NCBI GenBank assembly: GCA_031459535.1
Contig: JAVKIJ010000074.1
Span: 1-16,004 of the forward strand
Direction: 5' to 3'
DNA length: 16,004 nt
From: Candidatus Fervidifonticultor quintus
GTDB taxonomy: Bacteria > Sysuimicrobiota > Sysuimicrobiia > Sysuimicrobiales > Humicultoraceae
Shown here: positions 225 to 14,856 of the stretch, piece after piece
How positions within the stretch are numbered: the first letter of the stretch is position 1
Layout: each line of letters begins with the position of its first letter
Made by a program: the position numbers and the translations under genes
Notes under the pieces: model-generated
The model's database searches: none
What the model was told of the DNA's origin: nothing
What the model saw: only the letters and a program-made list of their open reading frames with translations

Positions 225-2102
225 CTACTGCGCTGTGGGGACCACCGCCATCCGGCTCTGCACGATCTGCCGACCCGCCACCGCAGCGCAGACTGCCAAT
301 CCGATCACCGACGGCACGAGCGCCGGGTGGAACAGCAAGGCGGCGCCGGCGATGAGGATGACACGTTCCAGGAGGCTCAGCGGCGCCCGCAGGTAGCCCA
401 TCACGGCCGCGGAGAGAAAGATAACCCCAACGGCCGTGGTCGCGATGTGCAGCGCCGCGTCTGCCGGATTGCCGCGCAGCAGCAGCGTTGGAATGAAGAT
501 GAAGCCGAACGGCACCAGGTAGCCCGAGAGGGTCAGACGCATGCCCTTCCAGCCGGTGTCCATCCAGTTGGAGCCGGCAATCGCCGACGCAGTGAACAGC
601 GCCATGCCCTCGGGCGGCGTGATCGTGGCCAGGACTGAGTAGTAGAAGATGAACATATGGGCCGCCAGCGTCGGGACGCCCACGGACTCCAGGGCCGGCG
701 CTACCGTGGCCGCCGCAATCAGATACGCCGCCGTGGTCGGCAGGGCCAGACCCAGGATGAGCGTCGCTGCGACCACGAACAGCAAGATGACCATGATGTT
801 CCCACCCGCTGCCTCCACCGCCAGGCTGGAGAACTTGAGGCCGATGCCGGTGAACACGATCATCGAGTAGATCAGCGCCGAGCAGGCCGTACCCATGGCG
901 GCTTCCAGGGTGCGCAGTCCCCCGTCGGCCAGGGCGTCGGCGATGGTCTGCAGTCCCATGCGGGTCTGCGGGCGCACCCATGACGATACGATCGTCAGGA
1001 CCACCACCAGGGCCGCAGCCCGCGGCGCGTTCATGCCTCCTACGACGAGAACCACCAGCGCCACAAACGGGATGAGCAGGTGCGCGCGGGTCCGCATCGC
1101 CTGCCGCATGGTCATGAAACCCTGGTCCAGCTCGGCCGCGCTCAGCCCGCGCAGCCCCAGGGCGCCAGCGCCGAAGTAGACCGAGGCGCCCACGGCCAGG
1201 TAGTAGAGCAGCGCCGGCACGATGGCCGCGACCACGATCTGGGCGTAGGGCACGCGGATCAGCTCGGCCATGATGAATGCCGCGGCGCCCATCACCGGCG
1301 GCATCAACTGCCCGCCGGCGCTGCTGGCCACCTCCACGGCACCGGCCCAGGCCGCCGGAAACCCGTAGCGCTTCATCAAGGGAATGCTGACGGACCCCGT
1401 GATGGCCACGTTGGCTGGCGCCGAGCCTGAGATCATCCCAAATACCAGACTACCGACGACGGACACCTGAGCCGGCCCGCCGCGGATACGACCGGCCAGC
1501 CGCATCGCCACCGCGTTGAGCAGGTCGGCTACCCCAGACTTCATCATGACCTGACCCAGCACGATGAACACCAGGATGTAGGTGGCCGCCACCCCCACGG
1601 GCAGGCTCCACATGCCGTCCGAGGTCAGGTACAGATACCCGAGCACGTCGCGCAGCCCGAACCCCGCATGCCCCCAGCTGCCCGGGATGTACCGCCCCAG
1701 CACGGCATACCCGATCATGACCGCCACCAGCGTTGGGAGGATCCAGCCGATGACCCGGCGGGTCGCCTCGAGAATGAGCAACAAGGCCACGACCGCCAGG
1801 ACGATCTGACTGCCTCTGGCGATCCCGCCCTGGTAGGCGATGGTCTCGGCGTTCTGCGCCACGTAGCCCACGGAGAGCGCGGTCAGCACGATCAGCGCCG
1901 CCTCTAGCAGGCGGAGCCGACCGCGGTCCGCCAGCCGCTCCAGGAAGATGAGCGTGAGCGCGAATGCCACGAACAGAGGCCGCTCGACCAGCAGGTCGAG
2001 CCCCCTCCGCCAGGCGTCCACCAGGAACACCAGCGCGAAGATCAGCGCCGCCGCCCGGTGGGTACGCCTGAGCAGGTGCGCCACGCGGCCCTCCGCTTCC
2101 AT
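225..2102 (-). CDS. TRAP transporter fused permease (4TM/12TM DctQM-type, TAXI-associated)
   Basis: 625-aa highly hydrophobic ORF with typical motifs: 'GGPAQVSVVGSLVFGMISGSAPANVAITGSVSIPLMKRYG', 'ASSAGGQLMPPVMGAAAFIMAE', 'LGLALPTTAAY' and 'AHMFIFYYSVLATITPP'. It starts 9 bp after the TAXI gene stop. Confidence 0.93.
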   Translation of the reverse strand: MEAEGRVAHLLRRTHRAAALIFALVFLVDAWRRGLDLLVERPLFVAFALTLIFLERLADRGRLRLLEAALIVLTALSVGYVAQNAETIAYQGGIARGSQIVLAVVALLLILEATRRVIGWILPTLVAVMIGYAVLGRYIPGSWGHAGFGLRDVLGYLYLTSDGMWSLPVGVAATYILVFIVLGQVMMKSGVADLLNAVAMRLAGRIRGGPAQVSVVGSLVFGMISGSAPANVAITGSVSIPLMKRYGFPAAWAGAVEVASSAGGQLMPPVMGAAAFIMAELIRVPYAQIVVAAIVPALLYYLAVGASVYFGAGALGLRGLSAAELDQGFMTMRQAMRTRAHLLIPFVALVVLVVGGMNAPRAAALVVVLTIVSSWVRPQTRMGLQTIADALADGGLRTLEAAMGTACSALIYSMIVFTGIGLKFSSLAVEAAGGNIMVILLFVVAATLILGLALPTTAAYLIAAATVAPALESVGVPTLAAHMFIFYYSVLATITPPEGMALFTASAIAGSNWMDTGWKGMRLTLSGYLVPFGFIFIPTLLLRGNPADAALHIATTAVGVIFLSAAVMGYLRAPLSLLERVILIAGAALLFHPALVPSVIGLAVCAAVAGRQIVQSRMAVVPTAQ

Positions 2103-2111
2103 CGAGGAACG

Positions 2112-3107
2112 CTACCTGGGGAGATCGGCCGGCGGTTGCATCTCCGCCGGGATGCGCAGGCCCGCCTCCCGGTAATAACGGAGGGCGCCGGGGTGCAGCG
2201 GGTACACGGTCTGCAGGACCGTCCGCTGCGTCATACCCTCGGCTTCCTTGTAGATCTTCACCACGGTGGCGAAGTTGTCGTAGACGGCCTTCGTGATCTG
2301 GTAGACCAGACCGGCGTCCAGGTCGTGCCGGGCGGCCATCACCGCCCACGGCGCCAGGACGCGGGCCTTGCCCGCGCCGCGGTACGACTGGGTGAAGTCG
2401 GCCTCCGCCACCGGGAGCTGCGGCATGCGCTCCCGGATCAGTTCCACCTCGTCCTCGGTGAACGAGAGGACCCGCAGCGGCTCCCGCAGCGAGACCTCGT
2501 AGTACGCTGGGGTAATGGCGCCGGAAACCGCCACGTCGATCTCGCCGCTCTGGAGGGCGCTGGCCGCATCGCTGTGCGGGTAGTGGTAGATCCGGCTGGG
2601 CCGGAGGCGCAGGACTTCCAGCAGCCGGGTGCCGACCTGCTCGGCCAGGGACCCCCGGGTCAGGACGTTGATACGCTTGCCGTTCAGATCGGCGAACGAT
2701 CGGATCCCCGAGCTCTGCCGGACGATGAAGTGCACGTACTGCGGGGGGACCGTGGGGTACATCTGGAGCGGGAACTTCTTGGCGTCCGCGTACGGCCCCG
2801 CGCGCCGCAGGACCTGGAACCCGTCCACGCTGACGATGACCGCGATGTCGCCCAGCCCCGACGCCAGCCGGAGGGCGTTGGCACCCAGCCCGGGCGTGGC
2901 TTGCACCGTCCCGGCCACCACGCCCCGCAGGTTGTCGGCCATGATCTGGCTGAGGCCGGCAGCCTGCAGATACGGCCCGCCGCCGATGATGCCGCCCAGG
3001 ATGGTGAGCCGCACCTGGGCCAGGCTCGTCGCGGCCAGCGAGGCCCCCAGGATCACCACGAGCATTGACACGTACAGGTGCCTGCCGACAGCATTCCGCA
3101 CGGTCAC
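2112..3107 (-). CDS. TAXI-family TRAP transporter solute-binding subunit
   Basis: N-terminal signal peptide (…YVSMLVVILGASLAATSLA-Q), 'SGIRSFADLNGKRINV', 'ALQSGEIDV', 'LVYQITKAVYDN' and the C-terminal 'PLHPGALRYYREAG' TAXI signature. Start moved from 3155 to GTG 3107, which follows GGAGG and overlaps the LacI stop (GTGA). Confidence 0.9.
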   Translation of the reverse strand: MTVRNAVGRHLYVSMLVVILGASLAATSLAQVRLTILGGIIGGGPYLQAAGLSQIMADNLRGVVAGTVQATPGLGANALRLASGLGDIAVIVSVDGFQVLRRAGPYADAKKFPLQMYPTVPPQYVHFIVRQSSGIRSFADLNGKRINVLTRGSLAEQVGTRLLEVLRLRPSRIYHYPHSDAASALQSGEIDVAVSGAITPAYYEVSLREPLRVLSFTEDEVELIRERMPQLPVAEADFTQSYRGAGKARVLAPWAVMAARHDLDAGLVYQITKAVYDNFATVVKIYKEAEGMTQRTVLQTVYPLHPGALRYYREAGLRIPAEMQPPADLPR

Positions 3108-4144
3108 TCCCTCCCCCCATACGCCTTGGTGGATTCGCGCACCCGCAGCGTGCACGGCAAGACCACGGACTGCGCGCGCATGCCCCGCAGGATCTTCAAG
3201 AGGAGTTCCACCGCTGTCCGACCGAGGTCGTAGGTGGGCACCGCCACGGTCGAGAGTGATGGCACCGTGTACGATGCCAGTGGCGTGTCGTCGAAGCCCA
3301 CCACGGAGACATCGTCTGGGACCCGGTGGCCCAGTTCGTGGAGGGCGCGGATCGCCCCGATGGCAACCTGATCGTTGGCGGCGACAATCGCCGACGGCGG
3401 CGGGTCGAGCTGGAACAACGCAGCCACCGCCTGCCCGGCCCCGGCCGGCGTGAAGCCCACCTCCCGGATGAGCGCCGGATCAGGCGACAGGCCCGCGGCC
3501 TCCAGCGCCTGGCGGTAACCGGCCACGCGGTCGCACGCCGAAAGCGAGGACGACGGCCCGGCCAGACAGGCGATGCGGCGGTGCCCGAGGGCCAGGAGGT
3601 GTTCGGTGGCCATGGCCCCGGCGGCCACGTTGTCCACCCGCACCTGCGGAAACCGGGCCCGGTGCCGGCCGATCATCACCATCGGCACAGCCCCTCCGAC
3701 CACGGACATTTCGGCCCGGCCGAATGACCCGCCGGCGATGATGACCCCGTCCACTCGCCGCTCCATCAGTGCCCTCAGGTAGAGGCGCTGTTGCTCCCTC
3801 CGGCGATCGGTATTGCAGAGGATGACCGTGCGGCCCGACGGCGCGATGGCGTCCTCGATGCCCCGCAGGATCGCGGCATAGTACGGGTTGGACACGTCGG
3901 GGATCAGGACACCGATGGCGGCCGTCTGCTGGGTGAGCAGGCTGCGCGCCAGCATATTGGGGATGTAGGCAAGCTTGCGCGCGGCCGCGAGCACCCGGCG
4001 GCGCCCGCGCTCGCTGACCGGATGCGGGCTGTGGTTCAGCACCCGCGACACGGTCGCAGGCGAGACACCGGCGTAGCGCGCCACATCCCGGATGGTCATG
4101 ACGCGGCGGCGCCGGGCCGGCGGGGACGCTAGGCGAGTGCCCAC
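3104..4144 (-). CDS. LacI-family transcriptional regulator
   Basis: HTH 'TIRDVARYAGVSPATVSRVLN', hinge 'YIPNMLARSL', and sugar-binding domain motifs 'NDQVAIGA' and 'VPDDVSVVGFDD'. The start is uncertain: GTG 4144 (after GAGGA) or ATG 4099. Confidence 0.93.
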   Translation of the reverse strand: MGTRLASPPARRRRVMTIRDVARYAGVSPATVSRVLNHSPHPVSERGRRRVLAAARKLAYIPNMLARSLLTQQTAAIGVLIPDVSNPYYAAILRGIEDAIAPSGRTVILCNTDRRREQQRLYLRALMERRVDGVIIAGGSFGRAEMSVVGGAVPMVMIGRHRARFPQVRVDNVAAGAMATEHLLALGHRRIACLAGPSSSLSACDRVAGYRQALEAAGLSPDPALIREVGFTPAGAGQAVAALFQLDPPPSAIVAANDQVAIGAIRALHELGHRVPDDVSVVGFDDTPLASYTVPSLSTVAVPTYDLGRTAVELLLKILRGMRAQSVVLPCTLRVRESTKAYGGRE

Positions 4145-5043
4145 GCTTCCTCGATGACGCGCTTGGCGTTGGCCACGATCAGCTCCGACCGTTCGCCGGC
4201 TACCAGCGGGCGCACCTCGGCGCTGCACACGGGTCGGGTCGTGGGGTTGAGGAATCCCAGATCCACCAGCAACCGGAAGAACGCCCGAACGTGGTCGGTG
4301 GTCACCTCGCTGTCCGGGAAGTCAAAGCGCGGCTGCAGGTCACCGTAGGCAATGTGCCGGCGGTCCTTGATGTAGGCGTTGCCGATGTGCACATGGACCA
4401 GGTAGGGCAGCAGCTCGGGGATGACGCGGTGGATGTCTTCGTTGTTGAGGGGAAAGTGGGACAGGTCGTAGAGCAGCCCGAAGCTCGGATACCACTTCCG
4501 GACCTCGCGGGCCACGTCGATGGCGTCTGGGTGCAGCCCGATCAGCGACTCCTTGTCGATCGACCGGTCGAAGAGCTTCAGGGTGAGACCGGGGTTGTCG
4601 TATCCCTGGGCGAACTCACAGATCTCGAGCAGCGAGTCCACCAGCAGCTTCTTGGCTTCCTCTCGACGCTGCGGGCCGGGGTCCTTGCCCGCGGTCAGCC
4701 GCACCCACCGCGCGCCGAGCTGACAGGCCTCGCGGATGCAGTTCTTGACCTGGTTGATGGCCCGCCGCCGCGCGTCGGCATCCAGGGCGTTGAGGCTGAG
4801 CTTCTGGCTGAACATGGCCGGCTGGGTGGCGTAGCAGACCTCAAGGTGGCTTTGGTCGAGGATGCGCCGGGCCTCATCGCGGGTCACCGGGTCCTTCATC
4901 CAGCCCACCTCCACCGCGGAGAAGAACGTGTCCTCGCAGATCTTCAGCAGGCTCTCGATGATGGGTCCGGTGCCCTGCTCAATGGGAAAGGCCTTGAAGA
5001 GGATGATCCCCGGCCGCATGTATCGCTTCAATGGCGCGTCCAT
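4129..5043 (-). CDS. Sugar-phosphate isomerase/epimerase-family (xylose-isomerase-like/AP endonuclease 2) TIM-barrel protein
   Basis: 'LNALDADARRRAINQVKNCIREACQLGA', 'LLYDLSHFPL', 'LVHVHIGNA' and 'SAEVRP' give the D-x-x-H, H and E metal-ligand pattern. Good RBS (GGAGGAG) precedes ATG 5043. Confidence 0.8.
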   Translation of the reverse strand: MDAPLKRYMRPGIILFKAFPIEQGTGPIIESLLKICEDTFFSAVEVGWMKDPVTRDEARRILDQSHLEVCYATQPAMFSQKLSLNALDADARRRAINQVKNCIREACQLGARWVRLTAGKDPGPQRREEAKKLLVDSLLEICEFAQGYDNPGLTLKLFDRSIDKESLIGLHPDAIDVAREVRKWYPSFGLLYDLSHFPLNNEDIHRVIPELLPYLVHVHIGNAYIKDRRHIAYGDLQPRFDFPDSEVTTDHVRAFFRLLVDLGFLNPTTRPVCSAEVRPLVAGERSELIVANAKRVIEEAWALA

Positions 5044-5076: not shown

Positions 5077-6183
5077 CTAGGGTATCACCACGACCTTGAT
5101 GGCGTCGCCGAGTCGCCGCTCGAAGGTCTCGATGGCCTTCGGCAGATCGTCCAGCGAGAACTGGTGGGTGATGAACGGCCGTCCCGAGATCTTGCCCTGC
5201 GCCATCAACGCCAGGCCTCGCCGGGTGGCCCCCCTGCCCTCGCCGCGGATACCGTAGAGGTAGATGTTGTTGCGCACCACGTGCGCGGCATCGAACGGCA
5301 CCATGTCGCTCGAAAACGCGGCCAGGCACACTCGCCCGCCGCGCTTCGTGCAGTACACCGCCTGGTTGACCGCGTCCGGCGCCCCGGAGCACTCCATCAC
5401 CAGGTCGACGCCCAGCCCACCGTCGGTGAGCCGCTTGACGGCTTCCACCAGGGGCTGCTCGCGCACGTTGATCACGTGGTCTGCGCCGAGCTCCCGGCCC
5501 AGCGCCAGCCGGCTCTCCCGCGTCCCGGCCAGGATGACCGATGCGCCCAGCGCCTTGCCGCAGGCCACCGACATCAGCCCGATGGGTCCAGGGCCGATGA
5601 CCAGAAGCGTCTCGCCGGCGATGAGGCCGCCCAGCACGTCCAGGCCGTAGATCGAGGTCCCGGCGGTTACGGCCAGCGTGGCCTCGTCGAACGGAATGTG
5701 ATCCGGGAGTTTGAACACCGTGTTGATGTGATTGACGGCATACTCCGCAAAGCCGCCGTCGGTGGTGAAGCCGTTGGCCCGGTGTCCCTTGGCGCGGTAC
5801 GAGTAGTTCAGGCATGACGTATACATGCCGTGTCGACAGCGCTCGCACCGACCGCAGCCGGCGTGGATCTCCACGACCACGCGATCGCCCACGGCGAACT
5901 CGTCCACCGTGGGCCCCAGTGCCGCCACCGTGCCCACATACTCGTGGCCGATGACATGCTGGCCGTTGAAGGGCGACCCACCATCGATCATGGCGGGCAA
6001 CCCTTTGCGCAGGATCTCGATGTCGGTCCCGCAGATGGCGACCGCTCCGATCTTGATGAGCACCTCCGCGTGACCGGGCTGCGGGACCGGCTTCCGGACC
6101 GGACGCAGGTCCCCCGGACCGAACAACGCCCAGGCCCGCATCGTCTCCGGCAGCGCCGGGCGTGTGACCTGCTCGACGACCAC
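5077..6183 (-). CDS. Zn-dependent alcohol/polyol dehydrogenase (MDR family, sorbitol/threonine dehydrogenase-like)
   Basis: Catalytic Zn 'ICGTD' and 'GHE', structural Zn 'CGRCERCRHGMYTSC', Rossmann 'GPGPIG'. Start moved from 6405 to GTG 6183, which follows GGAGG. Confidence 0.92.
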   Translation of the reverse strand: MVVEQVTRPALPETMRAWALFGPGDLRPVRKPVPQPGHAEVLIKIGAVAICGTDIEILRKGLPAMIDGGSPFNGQHVIGHEYVGTVAALGPTVDEFAVGDRVVVEIHAGCGRCERCRHGMYTSCLNYSYRAKGHRANGFTTDGGFAEYAVNHINTVFKLPDHIPFDEATLAVTAGTSIYGLDVLGGLIAGETLLVIGPGPIGLMSVACGKALGASVILAGTRESRLALGRELGADHVINVREQPLVEAVKRLTDGGLGVDLVMECSGAPDAVNQAVYCTKRGGRVCLAAFSSDMVPFDAAHVVRNNIYLYGIRGEGRGATRRGLALMAQGKISGRPFITHQFSLDDLPKAIETFERRLGDAIKVVVIP

Positions 6184-6200: not shown

Positions 6201-7502
6201 TCAGCGCGTTCCCGCCTGGCTGGAGGCGACCAGTTCGCAGTACGTGCGGATCGCCTCGTCCGCAAAGGGTGGGTCGTTGATGGCGGCATCCACCTCGAGG
6301 TAGCGGACCCGATCGGTGCGCAGCTGCGCCTGCAGGGTGCGACGAAACGCCTCCCCAGCCTCCGGGTCCCACATGGTGCCGCCCCGCTGGCCAATATACG
6401 ACCACCCCTGCAGCGGATAGAGGAAGGCCGTCGGTCCCTCGGCCGCGTTGAGGCGCTCCGCCAGCAGTCGGGCCACGCTGGCCCGCTCTTCGGCCACCGC
6501 CAGCACGTTGGTGTTGTAGGGATTGTGGTAGTGCGTCCGCCGGCCGCGGAACCTCGGCGGGACCGACTCCGGCGGTCCGAAGACGAAGTAGTCCAGCCCG
6601 CCGGGTGCGACGACCTGGGGGAGGCCGCGCCGTCCGGCTGCCCGCAGCCGCTGACCTTCTGGAGGCGCGTAGATGTCCTCGGTGCAGACCTCGCCCAGCA
6701 GCTCGTGGGTCGTCAGGTCTACGACCCCAACGAACGCCCCCGCGTCTACCAGACGTTCCATCACGGCGCCGCCCGCCCCGGACGCGTGGAACGGCACCAC
6801 TTCCAACCCACGCGCTGCCAGCGCATCCATGATCCGGGCCGCCGCGCCGTGCGTGTTGCCGAGCGCTGTCAGGGCCACCGCCGGCCTCAGCGCCCCAGAC
6901 GCCTGAGGGCCGGCCTCTGGAACCGGAGTTTCCGCCACGGGCGGCGCTGGCACATCGCCAGCGTTCAGCATGCCTTCCAGCATGGCCGCCGCGCGTCGGA
7001 GGACCCCGGCGGTCACTCGGTTGGGCCCACCCAGCAGGTCAGCCAGTGCCGGGACGACGGCGATATCACTGGCGCCCACGAAAGGGCGCATGTCGCCCGA
7101 GGCGACGGTCGAGACGACGACCTTCGGCAGCCCCAGCGGTAGCGCCCGCATGGCCATGCAGGCCACCGCGGTCCCCTGGTTGCCGCCGAGCCCGATGACG
7201 CCGGCAATCGTCCCGTCGGCGACCCACCGACGCAGGATCTCGCCCGCCCCACGGCCCATGGCCGCCATGGCCTGGTCCCGCCTCGCGGCCGCCAGTGCCT
7301 CCAGCGTGGTGCCCGCTGCCTCCGCGACCTGCTCCCGGAAGACGTCGCCGTCTTGAAGGGCACACTGGGGCGTACCCGCGACGCCCACGTCGATCAGGCG
7401 GGCCGCAAGGCCCCTGGCGGCGAACTGCTCGCGGAGGAACGCAGCCTCGAGCCCCTTGGTGTCCAGGGTCGCCACCACGGCGACGGTCGCGCGGCCGGTC
7501 AT
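6201..7502 (-). CDS. Tm-1-like ATP-binding domain protein (UPF0261)
   Basis: Family motifs 'ATLDTKG', 'RDQAMAAMGRGA', 'GLGGNQGT', 'MRALPLGLPKVVVSTVASG', 'FHASGAGG', 'VDLTTHE', 'PQVVAPGGLD' and 'AINDPPFA'. Start at ATG 7502 after GAGG. Confidence 0.88.
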   Translation of the reverse strand: MTGRATVAVVATLDTKGLEAAFLREQFAARGLAARLIDVGVAGTPQCALQDGDVFREQVAEAAGTTLEALAAARRDQAMAAMGRGAGEILRRWVADGTIAGVIGLGGNQGTAVACMAMRALPLGLPKVVVSTVASGDMRPFVGASDIAVVPALADLLGGPNRVTAGVLRRAAAMLEGMLNAGDVPAPPVAETPVPEAGPQASGALRPAVALTALGNTHGAAARIMDALAARGLEVVPFHASGAGGAVMERLVDAGAFVGVVDLTTHELLGEVCTEDIYAPPEGQRLRAAGRRGLPQVVAPGGLDYFVFGPPESVPPRFRGRRTHYHNPYNTNVLAVAEERASVARLLAERLNAAEGPTAFLYPLQGWSYIGQRGGTMWDPEAGEAFRRTLQAQLRTDRVRYLEVDAAINDPPFADEAIRTYCELVASSQAGTR

Positions 7503-7515
7503 ACGCACCTCGCCC

Positions 7516-8130
7516 CTACGGTTCCCGCCCACGCCACAGCCTGGTCAGGATCGCGGTTCTCGCCGCGTCCTCCAGATACTGCGTGATGTAGAACGCCTGG
7601 TAGAGGTCGGCACCGACCGTCAGGCTGCCGTGTTCGGCGAGCACCGCGGCCCGGACCTCTGGGTCGGAGAACGCCTCTTCCACCAGCCGCGCGAGCTCCG
7701 CCGACCCCGAGGGTGCCGGCGGAATGAGCACCAGCCCGCGTCCCAGAAAGGCCCGCGACGCGCCGGTGAGGTAGGGCGGCAGGCTGTGCGCCGCGGCGAA
7801 GACCAGGGTGTATGGTGGGTGCAGGTGCACTACGGCGCCCACATCGGGGCGCCGCCGGTAAATCGCCAGGTGGAACTGCATCTCTTTGGACGGTCGGGCG
7901 CCGACATCTTCAACGACGCGGCCGTCCAGGTCGACGACCAGCGTCTCGGCCTCGGTGATGTCCCCCAGCGAGTATCCGGTGGCCTTGATCACCACCTGGT
8001 CGCGCCCGGGCACCCGGACGCTCATGTTGCCGCTCACGCCGGGCGTCAGGCCGAAGGCGTAGGCGCGGTGGCACAGCGTGACCAGGGTCTGCCTCACCTG
8101 CGCCAGAGTCACCGGGGAATCGCCATTCAC
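7516..8130 (-). CDS. Class II aldolase/adducin family protein (FucA/AraD/MtnB-like)
   Basis: 'SGNMSVR', 'PSKEMQFHLAIYRRRPDVGAVVHLHPPY' (HxH Zn ligands) and 'LAEHG'. The GTG start overlaps the upstream TGA (GTGA, 8127-8130). Confidence 0.9.
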   Translation of the reverse strand: MNGDSPVTLAQVRQTLVTLCHRAYAFGLTPGVSGNMSVRVPGRDQVVIKATGYSLGDITEAETLVVDLDGRVVEDVGARPSKEMQFHLAIYRRRPDVGAVVHLHPPYTLVFAAAHSLPPYLTGASRAFLGRGLVLIPPAPSGSAELARLVEEAFSDPEVRAAVLAEHGSLTVGADLYQAFYITQYLEDAARTAILTRLWRGREP

Positions 8131-9035
8131 AGGCTGTACGCACGCCCCGGATAGTCTCTCTCGACCATCGACACCGGGAACTTCCGGACCTCGCCGACGA
8201 AGTCAGCCAGATGCCTGGCCATCCGCCGGAAGATCTCTTCCCCCTTGGCCGGGTTGGACCGGAAAGGATTCCCGATGACAGCCGTGTCACAGTACTCGTG
8301 GTGCTCCATCGGCACCCAGATGTTCTCCGACTCCTGGAACTTGACCGTGCCGGTGCCGTCGATCTTCGAGAACGCCGGCCCCATCCACCGCGGTGCGTGC
8401 GCCCGGTCGGAGACCGCCTTGTTCATGTCCACCAGGCGCTCATTGACCGCCATCAGGCAGGAGGTCTCCAGTTCGCTGGAGTGCCAGCCAGGGGTTTCCT
8501 CAGGGGGGTTCTCGAAGATGCCCTGCAGCACGTTGACCTCGCGCTCGGTGGGCGTCTTGTAGAATGCGATGAAGGCGCCGGTCTCGTAGCGCAGGCAGCG
8601 CAGGATCTCATCGATGGGCTTGGTGTTCGAACCGTGGTGGCTCACGAAGATGATCTTGGTGAACCCGTGAAAGATCAGGCTGCGCGCCACATCGTGCAGG
8701 ATTCGCCGATAGGTCTCGGCCTGCAGCGTGATGGTCCCCGCCCCCTCCAGCAGGCGCCCCATGTGATGCGGCGAGTAGCCGAAGGGCATCAGCGGTGTGT
8801 GCAGACAGTCGGCCATCTCTGCCGCCTGCACCACCGCCGTCATGGTGATGTAGCTGTCGGTGCCCAGCGGGATGTGCGCGCCGTGCTTCTCTGTGGAGCC
8901 GATCGGGACCAGGATGACGTCCTGGCCAGGCTCCTTGAGGCGCTCGGCCACCTCGGCGTAGGACATGGCCAGCAGGTTCCGCTTCCGGCCGTCGGTGGGA
9001 ACATCATGCCGGTAGTAACTCTCGTGTGCGCTCAT
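8127..9035 (-). CDS. Creatininase-family metallo-amidohydrolase/hydrolase
   Basis: 'VPIGSTEKHGAHIPLGTD' (E-x-H…D metal motif), 'GYSPHH', 'GTITL', 'SHHGSN' and 'HSSELETS'. RBS GAGGAGG precedes ATG 9035. First gene of the operon. Confidence 0.88.
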   Translation of the reverse strand: MSAHESYYRHDVPTDGRKRNLLAMSYAEVAERLKEPGQDVILVPIGSTEKHGAHIPLGTDSYITMTAVVQAAEMADCLHTPLMPFGYSPHHMGRLLEGAGTITLQAETYRRILHDVARSLIFHGFTKIIFVSHHGSNTKPIDEILRCLRYETGAFIAFYKTPTEREVNVLQGIFENPPEETPGWHSSELETSCLMAVNERLVDMNKAVSDRAHAPRWMGPAFSKIDGTGTVKFQESENIWVPMEHHEYCDTAVIGNPFRSNPAKGEEIFRRMARHLADFVGEVRKFPVSMVERDYPGRAYSL

Positions 9036-9076
9036 CGTTCCTCCTCGGTCTCGACCCGCGCGGGAAACGCACGGTC

Positions 9077-9098
9077 ATGGAAATCCTTTTCCATTCTA
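9077..9098 (-). promoter_or_regulatory. Putative LacI-type operator with adjacent -10 element of the catabolic operon
   Basis: Palindrome ATGGAAA-TCCT-TTTCCAT (9077-9094) resembles TGGAAANCGNTTTCCA LacI sites. A minus-strand TAGAAT at 9093-9098 abuts it, in an AT-rich island of the divergent intergenic region. Confidence 0.6.
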
Positions 9099-9165
9099 GA
9101 TTTCTAGATTCTCGGCGGAAGCCGATTCTCCTTGTCCGGGAGGGGCGCCCTCACCGGGGACGAAC

Positions 9166-9966
9166 ATGACAGTTGTGCGAAGGCGGATTCGCGGCTTCCT
9201 CTTTGACATGGACGGCGTGCTCTACCGCGGGCACCGACCGCTGCCAGGCGCCCGCACGGTCCTGACCCGCCTGGAGCGCCTCGGCCTCCCCTATGCCCTG
9301 GTCACGAACAACAGCACACGAACCCCGCGCCAGTACGTCCGGCACCTGGCGGCCATGCGCATGCGCGTGCAGGAGGATCGCATCGTGACCTCGTCGGTCG
9401 TCGCGGCGGAGTACCTCAAGAAGATCCTCCGCCCCGGGGACCGGGTGTTGATCATCGGCGAGCGCGGGTTGCAACAGGCCGTCCGCGCTGCCGGACTCGT
9501 TCCGTCCGAAGACCGGGTGGCTGCCGTCGTGGTGGGCCTGGATAGACATCTCACGTATCGCAGGCTTGCGGCCGCAGTTGGGGCCCTGCTGGGCGGGGCC
9601 GCCTTCGTCGCCACGAATCCGGACAGGCTGCTGCCCACCGAGGCAGGAGAGATTCCAGGGGCCGGCGCGCTGGTCGCGGCACTGGTGTACGCGACCGGAC
9701 GGCGCCCGATCATGATCGGCAAGCCGCGTCCGGCCCTCCTCCGCCAAGCGATGGCCCGCATCGGGACCCGGCCCGCGGAGACCGTGATGGTAGGGGATCA
9801 GGCCGCCACTGACGTCGCGGCAGGTCGGGCCGTGGGCGCCTACACTGTCTTGGTCCAAAGCGGTCTGGGGCCACCGCGCCGGGCTCGCGGCTCGCTGCCC
9901 CGACCGGACCTCGTGGTGCGGGACCTGCGAGAACTGTGGCGGACCATCAGCCCGACCCTCCGCTGA
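9166..9966 (+). CDS. HAD-superfamily class IIA hydrolase (NagD-like sugar/nucleotide phosphatase)
   Basis: Motif I 'FDMDGVLY', motif II 'VTNNS', 'ATNPD', motif III 'IGKP' and motif IV 'MVGDQAATDV'. Confidence 0.92.
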   Translation: MTVVRRRIRGFLFDMDGVLYRGHRPLPGARTVLTRLERLGLPYALVTNNSTRTPRQYVRHLAAMRMRVQEDRIVTSSVVAAEYLKKILRPGDRVLIIGERGLQQAVRAAGLVPSEDRVAAVVVGLDRHLTYRRLAAAVGALLGGAAFVATNPDRLLPTEAGEIPGAGALVAALVYATGRRPIMIGKPRPALLRQAMARIGTRPAETVMVGDQAATDVAAGRAVGAYTVLVQSGLGPPRRARGSLPRPDLVVRDLRELWRTISPTLR

Positions 9967-11285
9967 CGGCGAGGCCCGCAGGACCGCCGCCCGGGGCCGA
10001 GCTCTTTCCCTTCGGCGCGCTGCGCGCCAGCCTGGTGGCGATCGCCGCCGTCCTGGGGTTTCCGGTGGTAGCCGGATTCGTGGCCGTCGCCGCGCCGCAC
10101 CTGGCTGGCCTCCAGCACCGCGCCCCGCTCCCCCTGGCCGCCAATCACCTGGTCACGCTGGGATGGGGCACGCTGATTGCGATCGGGGCGCTGCACCAGC
10201 TCCTGCCGGCTGCAGCAGGCGTCCGCCGCGACCTCAGCCCGTGGGTCCCCGTGCAGCTCCCCATCCACCTCTGTGGCGTCGCGCTGCTGGCTGCCGGATT
10301 CGCCTCGGGCTGGCACCCGGTGACGGTGGCGGGAGGAAGTGGTGTGGCGGCCAGCGCCCTGGCCATGCTGGGGATGGCGATCGGCCTGGTGCGACGGCGA
10401 GGGCGCGCGCTCTCGGTTCTCCGCTACGTGGTGGCCGCCCTGGTCTGCCTGGCTGCGACGGTGCTGTGGGGGCTGGCGCTCGCGATCAACCGGTGGCTGG
10501 CCCTGTGGCCGACCCTGCTGAGGCCGGCGGGGCTCGGCATCCATCTCACGCTGGGGCTGGTTGGCTGGTTCGCACTGCTGGTCGTCGGGGTATCCTACTA
10601 CCTGCTGCCTCGCTTTGCTGGGATCAGGAACCCGATGGACCGGCAGGACCTGGTGTTCGGCGGGCTCGCGTGCGGCGCGGGCCTCCTGCTCGTGGGGAAT
10701 GTGGTCCCGGGGCGGCTGGTCCAACTTGGCCTGATGGTGGTCGGGCTGGCCGGACTGCTCTACGCGTGGGACCTGCACACCATGCTCCGGGCGTGGCGCA
10801 CCCGCGGCCGCGACATCGTGCGCGCCCACTGGTGGGTGCTCCTCGTGGAAACATCGGGCCTGGGCGCGGCAGCAGCGGCCTGGGGGGTCGGCCTGCTCCC
10901 CGGGGATGGCCTCCGGTGGGGCGTCGCGGGCGCGACGCTGTTCCTACTGGGATGGGTGACGCTGGCCATCACCGGCCAGGCGTACAAGGTCACACCCTTT
11001 CTCATGTGGTACTACCGATTCCACCGGGGGTTGTCGGCGCTGGAGGTGCCGCGACTGGAGGCGCCGTACTGGCCGCGCATCGCCCTCCCGCCGCTCGTGC
11101 TGCTGGCCGCTGCCGGGCCCGTCGTTGCGGCGGGAGTGCTGGCTGCCAGCCCGCGCCTGTGCGGCATCGGCGGCGTGGCCTACTTCGTGGGCGCGGTCAT
11201 GTTCGCGTTCGTGCTGGGCTACTCGTGGATTCCCGCCGTCTGGCGCGGAAGGAGACCTCCCGCCGCCGCCGCCGAAGCCCGTTGA
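9936..11285 (+). CDS. Polytopic membrane protein, NnrS-like/heme-copper-oxidase subunit I-like (function unknown)
   Basis: About 12 hydrophobic segments with three internal repeats: 'HLVTLGW…GALHQLLP', 'HLTLGLVGW…GVSYYLLPRF' and 'TLFLLGW…GQAYKVTPFLMWY'. The start is uncertain (GTG 9936 overlaps the HAD gene). Confidence 0.65.
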   Translation: MADHQPDPPLTARPAGPPPGAELFPFGALRASLVAIAAVLGFPVVAGFVAVAAPHLAGLQHRAPLPLAANHLVTLGWGTLIAIGALHQLLPAAAGVRRDLSPWVPVQLPIHLCGVALLAAGFASGWHPVTVAGGSGVAASALAMLGMAIGLVRRRGRALSVLRYVVAALVCLAATVLWGLALAINRWLALWPTLLRPAGLGIHLTLGLVGWFALLVVGVSYYLLPRFAGIRNPMDRQDLVFGGLACGAGLLLVGNVVPGRLVQLGLMVVGLAGLLYAWDLHTMLRAWRTRGRDIVRAHWWVLLVETSGLGAAAAAWGVGLLPGDGLRWGVAGATLFLLGWVTLAITGQAYKVTPFLMWYYRFHRGLSALEVPRLEAPYWPRIALPPLVLLAAAGPVVAAGVLAASPRLCGIGGVAYFVGAVMFAFVLGYSWIPAVWRGRRPPAAAAEAR

Positions 11286-11287
11286 CC

Positions 11288-12322
11288 ATGCGGCAATTGG
11301 ACTCTACCGCAGGCTCTGTGCGACTCGCCACGCGCACCGCGCGTGCGGCGATCCTGGGGCTGGGCGTCCACGTCCCGTCCCGGGTGCTCACCAACGCCGA
11401 TCTGGAGAAGATGGTGGACACCAGCGATGAGTGGATCATCACGCGCACGGGCATCCGCACCCGTCGTGTGGTCGACCCCGACCAGGCGGCCTCGGACCTG
11501 GCGGTCCCCGCGGCCCTGGCGGCGATGGCGGACGCCGGCCTGAGCGCCGACGACGTGGACCTGATCATCTGCGGCACGACGACCCCGGACATGGTGTTCC
11601 CCGCCACAGCCTGCCTGATCCAGGACCGCATCGGCGCGAAGCGCGCCGGGGCATTCGACCTGCTGGCCGCGTGCTCCAGCTTCGTCTATGGCCTCGTCTC
11701 GGCAGCGCAGACCGTGGAGGCCGGCCTGGCACGCCACGTGCTGGTCGTCGGCGCCGAGGCCCTGACGAAACTCGTGGACTGGACGGACCGTACCATATCA
11801 GTACTCATCGGCGACGGCGCCGGCGCCGTGGTGGTGGGCCCGTCGCGCAGCGGCGCCGGCATCAGCGCCACGGCCGTGGGAGCCGATGGGTCGGCCGCCG
11901 ACATCCTCAAGTTACCCTCCCCGGGCAGCCGGATTCCGGCCACACCGGAGGCGATCAGGAAGGGCCTGCACCGGGCGCGCATGGACGGCCAGGCGGTGTT
12001 CAAGCTGGCGGTGCGCATCGTCCCGGACGCCATCCGCCAGGTCACGGCCGCCGCCGGGCTGCGCCTGGAGGACCTGGACTGGGTGGTCCCTCACCAGGCC
12101 AACCAAAGGATCATCGAGGCCATCGCCAAAGGCCTCGAGTTGCCGCTGGAGCGGTTCGTCAGCACCATCGACCGCTACGGGAACACTTCGTCTGCGTCCA
12201 TCCCGCTGTCCCTGTGGGAGGCGCGGCGGGACGGCCGCCTCAAGGACGGCGACCACGTGGTGCTGATCGCCTTCGGCGGCGGATTCACCTGGTCGGGCTG
12301 TCTCGTCACCTGGGGATCCTAG
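11288..12322 (+). CDS. fabH: 3-oxoacyl-ACP synthase III (KAS III)
   Basis: 'VDTSDEWIITRTGI', catalytic Cys in 'AACSSF', 'GDGAGA', 'PHQANQRII', 'YGNTSSASIP' and 'FGGGFTW'. The real start is ATG 11288; the 719-aa ORF-track call extends out of frame over the upstream membrane-protein gene. Confidence 0.95.
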   Translation: MRQLDSTAGSVRLATRTARAAILGLGVHVPSRVLTNADLEKMVDTSDEWIITRTGIRTRRVVDPDQAASDLAVPAALAAMADAGLSADDVDLIICGTTTPDMVFPATACLIQDRIGAKRAGAFDLLAACSSFVYGLVSAAQTVEAGLARHVLVVGAEALTKLVDWTDRTISVLIGDGAGAVVVGPSRSGAGISATAVGADGSAADILKLPSPGSRIPATPEAIRKGLHRARMDGQAVFKLAVRIVPDAIRQVTAAAGLRLEDLDWVVPHQANQRIIEAIAKGLELPLERFVSTIDRYGNTSSASIPLSLWEARRDGRLKDGDHVVLIAFGGGFTWSGCLVTWGS

Positions 12323-12349
12323 CGGCCCGCGTGGGGGGCCACGCCGGGA

Positions 12350-12431
12350 AATCGGGTCCAGACCCGATGTGCGCTGGCCCCGTTCGCCCGTCAATGTCTA
12401 ATTGAGATTAATCGGGTCCACTTATCCCTAT
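12350..12431. promoter_or_regulatory. Putative Rrf2 operator region (palindrome plus direct repeat)
   Basis: Perfect inverted repeat ATCGGGTC-CA-GACCCGAT (12351-12368). AATCGGGTCCA repeats exactly 60 bp apart (12350-12360 and 12410-12420), and the second copy begins an imperfect inverted repeat ATCGGG…CCCTAT (12411-12431). An AT-rich stretch lies between the copies. Confidence 0.4.
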
Positions 12432-12443
12432 GCCTCGGTACTC

Positions 12444-12872
12444 ATGGCCATGAAGCTGACTCGGGAGGCTGACTACGCCGTACGGGTGGTCCTCGACCTG
12501 GCGGAGCACGCCGGGCGGGGACCGGTGCGATCGGCCGACATCGCTCGCCGCCAACTGATCCCGCGGCCGTTCCTGACCAAAGTGGTGCAGGCCCTGGCCA
12601 GGCAGGGCTACATGCGCACGCACCGCGGCGTCCGCGGGGGCGTCACGCTGACCCGCCGCCCGCGCGAGATCACGATGCGGGCGGTGGTGGAGGCCATCGA
12701 AGGCCCGTTCCGCCTCAACCGCTGCGTGGCGGGGTCGGGCGAGTGCCCGCTGGAACGCCGCTGCCCAGCGCATCCGGTCTGGCGGCGACTCCAGGCCCTG
12801 ATGCTCCGGGAGCTGGACCGGATCACGTTCGAGCGGCTGCGAAGGAGCAGCCGCAGGAGAGGTCGTGCATGA
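12444..12872 (+). CDS. Rrf2-family transcriptional regulator (three Cys, probable Fe-S sensor)
   Basis: 'MKLTREADYAVRVVLDLA', wHTH 'IARRQLIPRPFLTKVVQAL', wing 'RGVRGGVTL', 'VVEAIEG' and 'CVAGSGECPLERRC'. Start at ATG 12444 or 12450. Confidence 0.92.
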   Translation: MAMKLTREADYAVRVVLDLAEHAGRGPVRSADIARRQLIPRPFLTKVVQALARQGYMRTHRGVRGGVTLTRRPREITMRAVVEAIEGPFRLNRCVAGSGECPLERRCPAHPVWRRLQALMLRELDRITFERLRRSSRRRGRA

Positions 12873-12873
12873 G

Positions 12874-12936
12874 TCGCAGCCGCGTGATTGCGCCGGCCAG
12901 CGCCGCGGCGGGCGCGGCGTTGGCTACGGGCTGCGA
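12874..12936. terminator. GC-rich nested hairpin between convergent rrf2 and MFS genes
   Basis: GCCAGCGCCGCG (12896-12907)/CGCGGCGTTGGC (12913-12924) is nested within TCGCAGCC (12874-12881)/GGCTGCGA (12929-12936). No U-tract is present. Confidence 0.35.
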
Positions 12937-12950
12937 TGGTGACTTGGCGA

Positions 12951-14192
12951 TCAGACCGCCGGGGGATCTGCCGGCTCGATGACCGGCGGGGGAAGCGACG
13001 GTACCTCCGCCGGCCTGGGGAGGCCCGGTGCCGCTGCCGCCGCGATGGCATACACCCCCGCTGCAGCGGCAAACGGCGCAAGAGGCGCGAGCTCATAAAT
13101 GCCGCCGGCCCACAGCGGGCCCAGGGAACGGCCCAGGCTGTCGAAAGCGCTCTGCAACCCCAGCGACGTCCCGAAGCCCGTCGTCGTCAGGCGCGAGTTC
13201 AACGCGGCCAGAGACGGCCGGATCAGGGCCATGGCCACAGAAGTCAGCCCGACCGCCAGCGTCATCGTGGGCACCGAGCCCGCCGCCGACACCGACAGGA
13301 ACCCCAGCGCGCCGAACCCGAACCCCAGCATGATACCGCGCGCCTCTCCCCAACGCCTGGAGATGGGCCCCACGAGTCCGGCCTGGGTGACCACCGAGCC
13401 CAGACCAAACGCGGTGAACATGGCACCGACCTGAGACGGACTGGCCCCGGCCCGGTCCATAGCGTAATAGCCGAGCATCGAGAAGAGGCTCGATCCCCCG
13501 AAGGTTGCGGCGAAAGCCATGAGGTAGAGCGGTCGTTCACTGCTGGCCAGCGCGCGGGAGACGTTTCCGATGCCCGGCCGCGCCGTCCGCAGCCTGCGAC
13601 CGTCCGCCGGCGGTTCCCTCACCCAGCGGAGGACCACAGGCAGCGAGAGCGCCGCAGCAACCGCAGCGAAGTAGAAGGGCACCTGCGGGCCCAGGGTGGC
13701 CAGCGTGCCGCCGAGGGCCGGGCCCACCATGAACCCCACACCGAACGCAGCGCCCAGGATGCCCATCACGCCGCCTCGATCCTCGGGCTTGGTGAGGTCG
13801 GCCGCGATCGCCTGGGCCGAAGGCAGGACTGAGCTGGACAGCAGCCCACCGAGCACGCGCGCGACCAGGAGCACGCCATACGACGGCGCCAGCGCCATAG
13901 CCACAAACATGACGCCGTACCCAGCCAATCCCACCATGAGCACCGGCTTGCGGCCGATCCGATCGGCCAGCACGCCCCAGGCCGGAGACGCCAGAAACTG
14001 GGCGAGCGCCCATCCCGTGATGAGCAGCCCCATCTCGACCGAGGAGGCCCCAAACCGCCTGGCCAGGAAGGGCAGGATCGGCAGGACGATCCCGAAGCCG
14101 ATCATGACCAGCAACACCGTGCCGAAGAGCGTCCAGATCTGCCAGCGCACCCGAGGATCAATCCTCGGTGCGCGAGTGATCGAAGGTGGCAT
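12951..14192 (-). CDS. MFS transporter, DHA1 (TetA/Bmr-like drug:H+ antiporter) family
   Basis: 'GFGIVLPILP', motif A 'GVLADRIGRKPVL', antiporter motif C 'GAAFGVGFMVGPALGG' and a 12-TM pattern. Start moved from 14360 to ATG 14192. Confidence 0.9.
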   Translation of the reverse strand: MPPSITRAPRIDPRVRWQIWTLFGTVLLVMIGFGIVLPILPFLARRFGASSVEMGLLITGWALAQFLASPAWGVLADRIGRKPVLMVGLAGYGVMFVAMALAPSYGVLLVARVLGGLLSSSVLPSAQAIAADLTKPEDRGGVMGILGAAFGVGFMVGPALGGTLATLGPQVPFYFAAVAAALSLPVVLRWVREPPADGRRLRTARPGIGNVSRALASSERPLYLMAFAATFGGSSLFSMLGYYAMDRAGASPSQVGAMFTAFGLGSVVTQAGLVGPISRRWGEARGIMLGFGFGALGFLSVSAAGSVPTMTLAVGLTSVAMALIRPSLAALNSRLTTTGFGTSLGLQSAFDSLGRSLGPLWAGGIYELAPLAPFAAAAGVYAIAAAAAPGLPRPAEVPSLPPPVIEPADPPAV

Positions 14193-14226
14193 CCCTGCCT
14201 GCGCGCGGCGGTGCACCGGTCGCGGA

Positions 14227-14856
14227 CTATGGGATCTTGTAGCGAACGAGCTCTGACCAGCCGGAGATCTGGCGGTCGCCCCGGTGCCCCTTCCGTTCGG
14301 TGCGGACGGCGCCCACGCCCGGCGCGTACCAGGTGAACGCCGTGATCTCCGAGTCTTCACCGGTCGTGATGGACTGCAGCTTCCAGGCCCGGAAGGTCCC
14401 GGCCTTCACCCGAACCGTCTCCTCGCCGATCCACTTCTCGGCGACCTTGAACGCGAAGGGCACATCGGCCGGACTCCACGACCACGAGAGGCCTGCGCGG
14501 GGCGGCAGTCGCAGCGCCACCCGTGGCGGGTTGAGGACGACCAACTCGCCGCGTGGATTCGTCGTCTCCAGCACCAGGACATCAGACGCCGTAACCAGAT
14601 AGCAGGTCCGCGTGGTTCGTTCGCGCTCCCGCCCGGTGGTCCGCCGTTCCACCACCGTGCACCGGCGCTCCTTGATCATCTTCGTCCCGACCACGCGCGA
14701 GATGGATTCCGTGCCGTCGTCGTTGACCCGCACCCACTCTGCGCCGACCGGCAGAGGGAAGAGCGACGGAGCGGGGCCGGCCCGCGCAGCACCCCCGGCC
14801 GCCAGGATCACCGAGAGCGCCACCACACACAGCGCGGCGCGGGAGAAGGGCGTCAT
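14227..14856 (-). CDS. Secreted beta-rich hypothetical protein (DUF3108-like)
   Basis: Signal peptide MTPFSRAALCVVALSVILAAGGAARA follows RBS GGAGG. It carries 'ETVRVKAGTFRAWK' and 'TWYAPGVGAVR' motifs, which I associate with DUF3108-like proteins. Confidence 0.7.
   Translation of the reverse strand: MTPFSRAALCVVALSVILAAGGAARAGPAPSLFPLPVGAEWVRVNDDGTESISRVVGTKMIKERRCTVVERRTTGRERERTTRTCYLVTASDVLVLETTNPRGELVVLNPPRVALRLPPRAGLSWSWSPADVPFAFKVAEKWIGEETVRVKAGTFRAWKLQSITTGEDSEITAFTWYAPGVGAVRTERKGHRGDRQISGWSELVRYKIP

Follow-up and report, generated by a model that had tools for sequence, protein, structure and literature searches.

A UPF0261 protein as the candidate kinase of a conserved catabolic gene cluster in Candidatus Fervidifonticultor quintus

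UPF0261 is a large family of proteins in bacteria, archaea and plants; in the virus-resistance protein Tm-1, it makes up the N-terminal half. In the 16,004-nucleotide (nt) stretch of DNA analyzed here (the window; contig JAVKIJ010000074.1 of Candidatus Fervidifonticultor quintus), a UPF0261 gene (7502..6201, minus strand, 433 amino acids) lies in an operon of eight minus-strand genes, which encode a creatininase-family metallohydrolase, a class II aldolase/adducin-family enzyme, the UPF0261 protein, a Zn-dependent dehydrogenase, a xylose-isomerase-like TIM barrel, a LacI-family regulator, a TAXI binding protein and a TRAP permease. This work suggests that the UPF0261 protein is probably the soluble ATP-dependent small-molecule kinase of the pathway, which would phosphorylate an intermediate and so feed the aldolase.

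In a 2025 report (PMC12624787), the first catalytic activity of a UPF0261 protein is described for MarK (multiple aromatic kinase; Saro_1862, structure 9MPY) of Novosphingobium aromaticivorans, which phosphorylates the phenolic hydroxyl of acetovanillone and converts ATP to ADP. The activity was obtained from a laboratory-evolved enzyme, and the substitution E16K, at the position of Tm-1 Lys20, increased it about 1600-fold. According to the same report, MarK His219 forms a hydrogen bond with the phosphoryl-acceptor oxygen, the acetovanillone pocket is made up of G195, T196, H219, F283, I285, H304 and H348, of which His348 binds the ketone, and the operon of the pathway carries homologues of known acetovanillone genes that are essential, acvF/hpeD being one of them; Tm-1 is described there as binding a viral protein, with ATP located at the contact between the two. 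An earlier reading of this DNA from its letters alone (the sequence-only reading) had stated that no assigned bacterial function was known to it for UPF0261, which is superseded by the MarK kinase.

The UPF0261 protein and its relation to MarK

The protein matched PF06792 (168.8 bits, E = 1.5e-49) and PF23189 (211.3 bits, E = 1.3e-62) in Pfam, with a cut-off of 27 for each, and NF002674 in NCBIfam (412.7 bits, cut-off 335). Its best match among solved structures was MarK (E = 4.9e-54, residues 1-427), followed by tomato Tm-1 (E = 4.6e-48). An AlphaFold model based on 31 orthologues (predicted local distance difference test score 91.4, predicted template modelling (TM) score 0.85) matched 3WRW, 3WRX, 3WRY and 9MPY in Foldseek with E values of 1.5e-35 to 5.5e-34 and TM scores of 0.59-0.80, namely 0.69-0.80 for Tm-1 and about 0.6 for MarK, and the next matches, GT-B glycosyltransferases, had TM scores of about 0.2. 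The model has the two-domain fold of Tm-1 and MarK, and the architecture shared with MarK extends over the full length, with 33% identity in the Foldseek alignment.

Judged from the alignments, the protein keeps the lysine and the glycine-rich loop of the ATP site. Lys16 (codon at 7455-7457, in the motif LDTKG) aligns with MarK residue 16 and is equivalent to Tm-1 Lys20, so that the lysine introduced into MarK by E16K is native in this protein; the glycine loop (GLGGNQGT, residues 104-111, 7170-7193) is the same in both. D14, T15, K16, G106, G107 and G110 are invariant in the 31 orthologues, as are His239 (codon at 6786-6788) and His326, which align with MarK His219 and His304. In total, 75 columns are invariant in orthologues across bacteria and archaea, including polar motifs of the C-terminal (substrate) domain such as THYHNPYNTN (6507-6536), and D262, H266 and E267 are further polar residues that are invariant in this subfamily. 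Conservation of this kind is what is usually seen around the active site of an enzyme.

The equivalents of MarK G195, His219 and His304 are kept in the pocket. In contrast, His348 is replaced by Ile370, Thr196 by Asn216, Phe283 by Tyr305 and Ile285 by Val307, so that the acetovanillone pocket of MarK-type kinases as a whole is not reproduced, and MarK has other residues where THYHNPYNTN, D262, H266 and E267 align with it. No carboxylase/phosphatase domains of the acvCDEF/hpeCBAD type, in which hpeD is presumably the phosphatase, were found among the 23 open reading frames (ORFs) of the window that were scanned, and the neighbors are enzymes of the sugar-acid type. Because the pocket residues are changed, the subfamily has polar motifs of its own and acetovanillone carboxylase genes are not found nearby, the gene is not a MarK orthologue.

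The coding frame agrees with the description in the sequence-only reading, which placed the UPF0261 gene directly downstream of the aldolase gene with a gap of 13 bp. The aldolase ORF ends with TAG at 7518-7516 and is followed by a 13-nt spacer (7515-7503) containing GAGG, the UPF0261 ATG at 7502 and, at the end of the gene, TGA at 6203-6201. The longest ORF listed (6201..7532, GTG start) would run into the aldolase gene, and ATG 7502 is therefore the better start. The GC content was 63-72% across the 1-kb windows of the stretch. A protein of 867 amino acids on one metagenome contig (P0002), in which a class III aminotransferase domain (PF00202) is joined to UPF0261, was the only fusion found among longer homologues. 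In locus L005, what looked like a fusion of aldolase and UPF0261 was rejected, as a TGA lies between the two genes.

Conservation of the cluster and occurrence of other kinases

Searching with the UPF0261 protein found 35 loci; the hydrolase and the Zn-dehydrogenase were each present in 31 of these and the aldolase in 28, with the misses mostly at contig ends. By alignment of the hydrolase, 77 loci on 75 contigs were found, which are not independent samples; among these, UPF0261 was present in 71, the Zn-dehydrogenase in 68, the class II aldolase in 64, the LacI regulator in 57, the TIM barrel in 19 and TAXI-TRAP genes in 15. The median gap from the UPF0261 gene was about 97 nt to the dehydrogenase gene and 98 nt to the aldolase gene. 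The adjacency of aldolase and UPF0261 genes is far beyond chance because the same pairing recurs in dozens of genomes. The UPF0261 gene is associated most strongly with the creatininase-family hydrolase and the Zn-dehydrogenase, and less strongly with the aldolase. Six of the hydrolase loci were without UPF0261: the contig stops at the hydrolase in L048 and L101 and shortly after it in L098, the rest of which is on the L014 contig of the same metagenome-assembled genome (MAG), whereas L083 and L094 are second hydrolase copies and L102 is a different cluster.

By record titles and taxonomy, the carriers span about eight bacterial phyla (Ca. Sysuimicrobiota, Armatimonadota, Bacillota, Actinomycetota, Planctomycetota, Methylomirabilota, Spirochaetota (Rectinema) and Desulfobacteraceae) and three archaeal phyla (Sulfolobales and Desulfurococcales, the archaeoglobal Mnemosynella and the caldarchaeal Pelearchaeum), and include cultivable organisms such as Moorella, Georgenia, Pseudonocardia, Streptomyces and Rubrobacter taiwanensis. 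The closest relatives are from Ca. Fervidifonticultor, with hydrolases 79-90% and UPF0261 proteins 50-69% identical. The UPF0261 gene was found in only 8 of 31 related genomes, and the cluster therefore looks like a mobile accessory trait. The transporters encoded beside the cluster are TAXI-TRAP, TctABC in many loci, DASS in Moorella and NMT1-type ABC systems in Actinobacteria; a sugar-type ABC system was found in L030, and also in L102, which is without UPF0261. Since most of these neighboring transporters are organic-anion types, an anionic substrate is indicated.

Some versions of the cluster differ in gene content. In four archaeal loci (L022, 12371-13480; L025, 12343-13458; L027, 12355-13464; L104, 6022-7101), a muconate-cycloisomerase-like gene of the enolase superfamily follows the Zn-dehydrogenase gene, and the xylose-isomerase-like TIM barrel was not detected in these versions. 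Several Bacillota loci (L017, 6723-13219; L026, 12660-20696; L032, 6171-14138; and L083) carry a second copy of the creatininase-family gene, 62-63% identical, a few kb downstream beside TctABC genes and a gene for a multi-domain RidA (Rid-family) protein. In L046 (Rubrobacteraceae MAG, 11559-14029) and L073 (Syntrophothermus MAG, 3787-5003) the UPF0261 match was in two tblastn pieces, and in L046 the dehydrogenase was split as well; these splits may be frameshifts, decay or assembly errors.

The sequence-only reading had reported that the operon contains no FGGY, PfkB, ROK or four-carbon-acid kinase, and the domain scan of the 23 window ORFs bore this out, as FGGY, PfkB, ROK and DUF1537 domains were all absent from them. 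In addition, the window gave no match in a six-frame tblastn search in which the queries were 11 kinases encoded by this genome, from the PfkB, FGGY and ROK families. The neighbor scans took in 93 of the 206 ORFs predicted in 12 loci, 111 of the 160 predicted in 18 loci and 15 more, and no FGGY, PfkB, ROK, GHMP, DUF1537 or glycerate kinase was found among the 219 ORFs submitted from these 30 loci. The scans did find an ABC1 kinase in L047 and an AroK-AroB fusion with AroQ in L040, which is probably for aromatic biosynthesis. In that locus (Bacillota MAG, 7608-9921 and 18884-19303) the cluster is flanked by genes for the biosynthesis of aromatic amino acids, with the AroK-AroB fusion and AroQ upstream and a chorismate mutase gene downstream.

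Clusters lacking UPF0261, in which the sequence-only reading had suggested looking for a canonical kinase, are almost absent. The sole well-flanked hydrolase locus without UPF0261, and without a main copy elsewhere in the genome, is L102 from Rokubacteria, which carries a dikinase-like gene of the PPDK_N/phosphoenolpyruvate (PEP)-utilizer type. This gene was considered as a replacement of UPF0261, and it is not clean evidence for one, as it belongs to a conserved module of its own with an M24 peptidase and a Zn-dependent alcohol dehydrogenase (ADH). A match to M24 and/or ADH lies beside the dikinase-like gene in 23 of the 24 loci closest to L102, and the hydrolase lies beside the module only on the L102 contig (L108 is the same contig). 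In five alphaproteobacterial loci, a UPF0261 homologue with 33-36% identity is located about 2 kb upstream of the module. The module itself, which consists of a creatinase/prolidase-like M24 peptidase, a Zn-dehydrogenase and the dikinase-like protein (L102, 9998-14489, and L108-L131), was found in Rokubacteria, Methylomirabilota, Acidobacteria-type and alphaproteobacterial MAGs, and its M24 proteins are 79-96% identical.

The operon and the proposed role of the UPF0261 protein

The first gene of the operon encodes the creatininase-family metallohydrolase (8127..9035, 302 amino acids), the most conserved operon member, with a mean column identity of 74% in 26 sequences. The GTG start of the aldolase gene (7516..8130, 204 amino acids) overlaps the hydrolase stop (GTGA). 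The aldolase matched PF00596 (164.9 bits, E = 2.3e-48), and its closest solved relatives are fuculose-phosphate aldolases (E = 3e-19). When it was aligned to the FucA structures 6BTD and 4C25, the three histidines, the glutamate and the GN.S and PS.E loops aligned with the FucA motifs, and 19 orthologues from the cluster show no variation in the GN.S, PS.E, H.H and HG motifs (G34, N35, S37, P80, S81, E83, H102, H104, H167 and G168). We take these His/Glu and loop positions to be the metal (zinc) and phosphate ligands of E. coli FucA, and the retention of the motifs would fit a phosphorylated substrate. Downstream of the UPF0261 gene (6201..7502), the Zn-dependent dehydrogenase of the threonine/sorbitol dehydrogenase type (5077..6183, 368 amino acids) has a GTG start 17 nt past the UPF0261 stop. 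It is followed by the xylose-isomerase-like TIM barrel (PF01261; 4129..5043, 304 amino acids), a putative isomerase/epimerase for which no solved-structure relative was found at E 0.001. The longest ORF of the LacI-family regulator is 3104..4228; the true start is probably after the TIM-barrel stop, because the helix-turn-helix begins only at residue 45 of this ORF. The last two genes encode the TAXI-family TRAP solute-binding protein (longest ORF 2112..3155), none of whose matches carried a ligand name, and a fused TRAP permease (225..2102; TIGR02123, 533.6 bits). Apart from the scores given, these assignments are from Pfam and NCBIfam matches, and all of these genes are on the minus strand.

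A palindrome, TGGAAATCCTTTTCCA, is located at 9078-9093, 42 nt upstream of the hydrolase start codon, and is likely to be the operator of the LacI-type regulator. Its pattern had one match in the window and none in 200 shuffles, the palindrome is conserved in an alignment of four intergenic regions, and the exact form TGGAAA-N4-TTTCCA was found in 9 of 198 loci, one of them from Desulfobacteraceae, and always at a distance of 25-56 nt ahead of the hydrolase gene. The putative operator supports the view that the genes form a single regulated unit. An AT-rich segment (9095-9113) adjoins the palindrome in this genome of about 70% GC and contains two tandem copies of TTCTAGAT, each with a TCTAGA palindrome, in the divergent promoter region between the hydrolase gene and a HAD-IIA phosphatase-like gene (9166..9966, plus strand, by Pfam and NCBIfam). 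As the HAD-IIA gene lies beside the cluster in only 3 of the 77 loci, all closest relatives, its membership of the system is uncertain.

We propose that UPF0261 is probably the only kinase of a LacI-regulated operon for the catabolism of an anionic, probably carboxylate-bearing, sugar-like or cyclic compound. The compound would be taken up by TAXI-TRAP and oxidized by the Zn-dehydrogenase, and the creatininase-family metallohydrolase would open a ring or bond by hydrolysis, by analogy with Thermotoga IolM/IolN. The open-chain hydroxy- or keto-acid expected after these two enzymes might then be isomerized by the TIM-barrel enzyme, where present. The UPF0261 protein would phosphorylate a hydroxyl of this acid, converting ATP to ADP as in MarK, and the aldolase-family enzyme may cleave, decarboxylate or epimerize the phosphoester to give a central phosphorylated product such as dihydroxyacetone phosphate. 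The family membership, the retained residues of the ATP site, the conserved gene neighborhood and the small number of other kinases are observed directly, and we infer the kinase activity of the protein, the substrate and the order of these steps. The suggestion of the sequence-only reading that UPF0261 is the missing ATP-dependent enzyme of the operon is partly supported, in that a kinase most likely fills this gap. This agrees with the MarK precedent, with Lys16 and the glycine loop, with the close conservation of the cluster, with the finding that homologous clusters rarely hold conventional kinases and with the metal and phosphate motifs of the aldolase; the strongest partners of the gene are the hydrolase and the dehydrogenase.

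Several observations weigh against this proposal. Wild-type MarK is a very poor kinase, and its ATP and substrate sites are about 25 Å apart (PMC12624787). The aldolase was absent from the fetched DNA in 8 of the 71 UPF0261 loci; two of these are centered on second hydrolase copies, several are archaeal, and the others are L095 and L023, a short contig. The link between kinase and aldolase is therefore weaker than that to the hydrolase and dehydrogenase. The neighbor scans left out core, short and distal ORFs, ORF calls in GC-rich loci were crude, and the six-frame tblastn search was confined to three kinase families. Conventional kinases were matched by tblastn in 3 of 106 loci. In L006 this is a ribokinase-like PfkB gene directly upstream of the hydrolase; in L043, a 2-keto-3-deoxygluconate-kinase-like PfkB gene follows the TRAP genes, and in L053, a ribokinase-like gene is 5.5 kb away. 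In addition, a gene for a BadF/BcrA-type ATPase lies near L056. At 3 of 106 loci, conventional kinases are not regular members of the cluster, and the regular coexistence with UPF0261 that the sequence-only reading had named as contrary to its idea was not observed; nevertheless, the three cases weigh against a strict claim that UPF0261 is the only kinase. Finally, phosphatase genes adjoin some clusters: a HAD-IIA gene is present in this window and beside the clusters of the closest relatives, and L021 has a ComB-like gene. The phosphate may therefore be a transient activating group and not the handle of the aldolase.

The last point can be extended to an explanation that we consider unlikely, in which the UPF0261 protein is a kinase and the cycle of phosphorylation, C-C chemistry and dephosphorylation is like that of acetovanillone catabolism: an acidic hydroxyl, such as an enol or enediol of the oxidized substrate, would be phosphorylated, a phosphatase would later remove the phosphate, and binding by the aldolase would be independent of it. 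This would be consistent with the action of MarK on a phenolic hydroxyl in a pathway with an acvF/hpeD homologue (PMC12624787), with the invariance in the subfamily of His239, the counterpart of the histidine that contacts the acceptor oxygen, and with the divergent HAD-IIA gene here and in the closest relatives and the gene for a ComB-like 2-phospho-acid phosphatase after the dehydrogenase gene in L021. However, the HAD-IIA gene is confined to 3 of the 77 loci and the ComB-like gene to one, whereas the aldolase is present in 64 of the 77 and keeps its phosphate-loop motifs.

The close association with the hydrolase could also mean that UPF0261 is an ATP-using partner of this enzyme, which drives or gates an unfavorable ring opening or closure with no stable phosphoester. 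ATP-dependent lactamases and hydantoinases couple ATP to such ring reactions, UPF0261 was recovered through the hydrolase in 71 of the 77 loci, and in archaeal loci the two genes are adjacent while the aldolase gene is elsewhere or was not found. On the other hand, the creatininase-family enzymes known to us are ATP-independent, no UPF0261-creatininase fusion was found among the longer proteins, a blank that is weak evidence, and MarK, the sole member of UPF0261 with an enzyme assay, acts as a plain kinase (PMC12624787). We therefore regard this partnership as improbable. A non-catalytic role as an ATP-binding sensor, regulator or scaffold appears more improbable still, even though Tm-1 acts through the ATP-bridged binding of a viral protein (PMC12624787) and the model is nearer to the Tm-1 conformations than to the crystal form of MarK by the TM scores given above. 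The operon is already equipped with a LacI regulator and a conserved putative operator, the gene sits amid enzyme genes, which is unlike a regulator, and the 75 invariant columns with THYHNPYNTN have the pattern typical of an enzyme active site. The kinase that feeds the aldolase is thus the explanation that we prefer.

Two further regions of the window lie outside the operon. Between the HAD-IIA gene and a FabH domain (9966-11330), about 1.3 kb are without a Pfam-assignable ORF, and the AT skew is strong (-0.33 over 10001-11000); the longest ORF there (10163..12322, 719 amino acids) has its FabH match confined to residues 393-717. A gene for an Rrf2-family regulator (12402..12872, plus strand) and one for a Tet(A)-like efflux protein of the MFS type (12951..14360, minus strand) lie next to each other in convergent orientation, and the NCBIfam matches of this pair were all below the cut-offs.

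Comparison with other catabolic systems

No account of this cluster, nor of a second UPF0261 activity besides MarK, was found in the literature, and the UPF0261 clusters listed in the Atlas are all uncharacterized. The cluster offers a natural member of the family, with the key lysine native, in a defined and strongly conserved enzymatic setting. The likely substrates of UPF0261 could be made in vitro by the neighboring enzymes, and the cultivable carriers make the question testable. If the proposed role is true, a second substrate class would be added to UPF0261, together with a new catabolic route involving a hydrolase of the creatininase family, for which few reactions are known to our knowledge. 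More broadly, and only tentatively, UPF0261 might be a general kinase family for acidic hydroxyls, phenols in MarK and an enol, enediol or keto-acid here, with the present subfamily as the committed kinase of an undescribed pathway that oxidizes, hydrolyzes, phosphorylates and cleaves a cyclic or lactone-type organic acid, has passed horizontally between thermophilic bacteria, soil bacteria and members of three archaeal phyla, and uses UPF0261 in the role of PfkB or DUF1537 kinases. As for the identity of the substrate, none of the routes weighed (ascorbate/2,3-diketogulonate, tetronate, inositol and quinate) is favored, as all model matches were below the cut-offs.

The protein shares with tomato Tm-1 (3WRV-3WRY) the fold and the ATP-binding N-terminal domain. 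Unlike Tm-1 and the bacterial pairs of UPF0261 with PF09370, a PEP-hydrolase-like TIM barrel, it stands alone among catabolic enzymes: no PF09370 domain was found fused or adjacent to it in the window, and the genome as a whole, at a completeness of 88.85%, gave no match either.

The arrangement of the Zn-dehydrogenase, hydrolase and TIM-barrel genes is like that of IolM, IolN and IolO of Thermotoga maritima, in which a Zn-dehydrogenase, a ring-opening creatininase-family hydrolase and a xylose-isomerase-like TIM barrel are encoded side by side. The oxidative inositol pathway of Thermotoga reportedly has neither a UPF0261 protein nor a class II aldolase. The scores against NF041097, NF041098 and NF041099 (193.9, 88.2 and 41.9 bits, with cut-offs of 450, 245 and 300 bits, respectively) are far below the equivalog level, and the transporters here point to an anionic substrate.

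DUF1537 proteins are reportedly the acid-sugar kinases of tetronate and apionate catabolism. In the DUF1537 systems (OtnK/OtnC/OtnI and OiaK/OiaC), a dehydrogenase, an isomerase, a kinase of novel fold and an enzyme of the class II aldolase family act in succession and acid transporters are present, and the present cluster resembles them in this respect. The aldolase matched the OtnC model NF043034 with 96 bits (E = 2.6e-27), which is below the cut-off of 250 bits; PF07005 and PF17042 were not matched in the window, and PF07005 had no match in the genome at the completeness given above. The DUF1537 pathways, in contrast to the operon described here, are without a creatininase-family hydrolase, and the folds of the two kinases are unrelated. 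Therefore, the likeness of the UPF0261 protein to OtnK, DtnK and OiaK would be one of role and not of descent.

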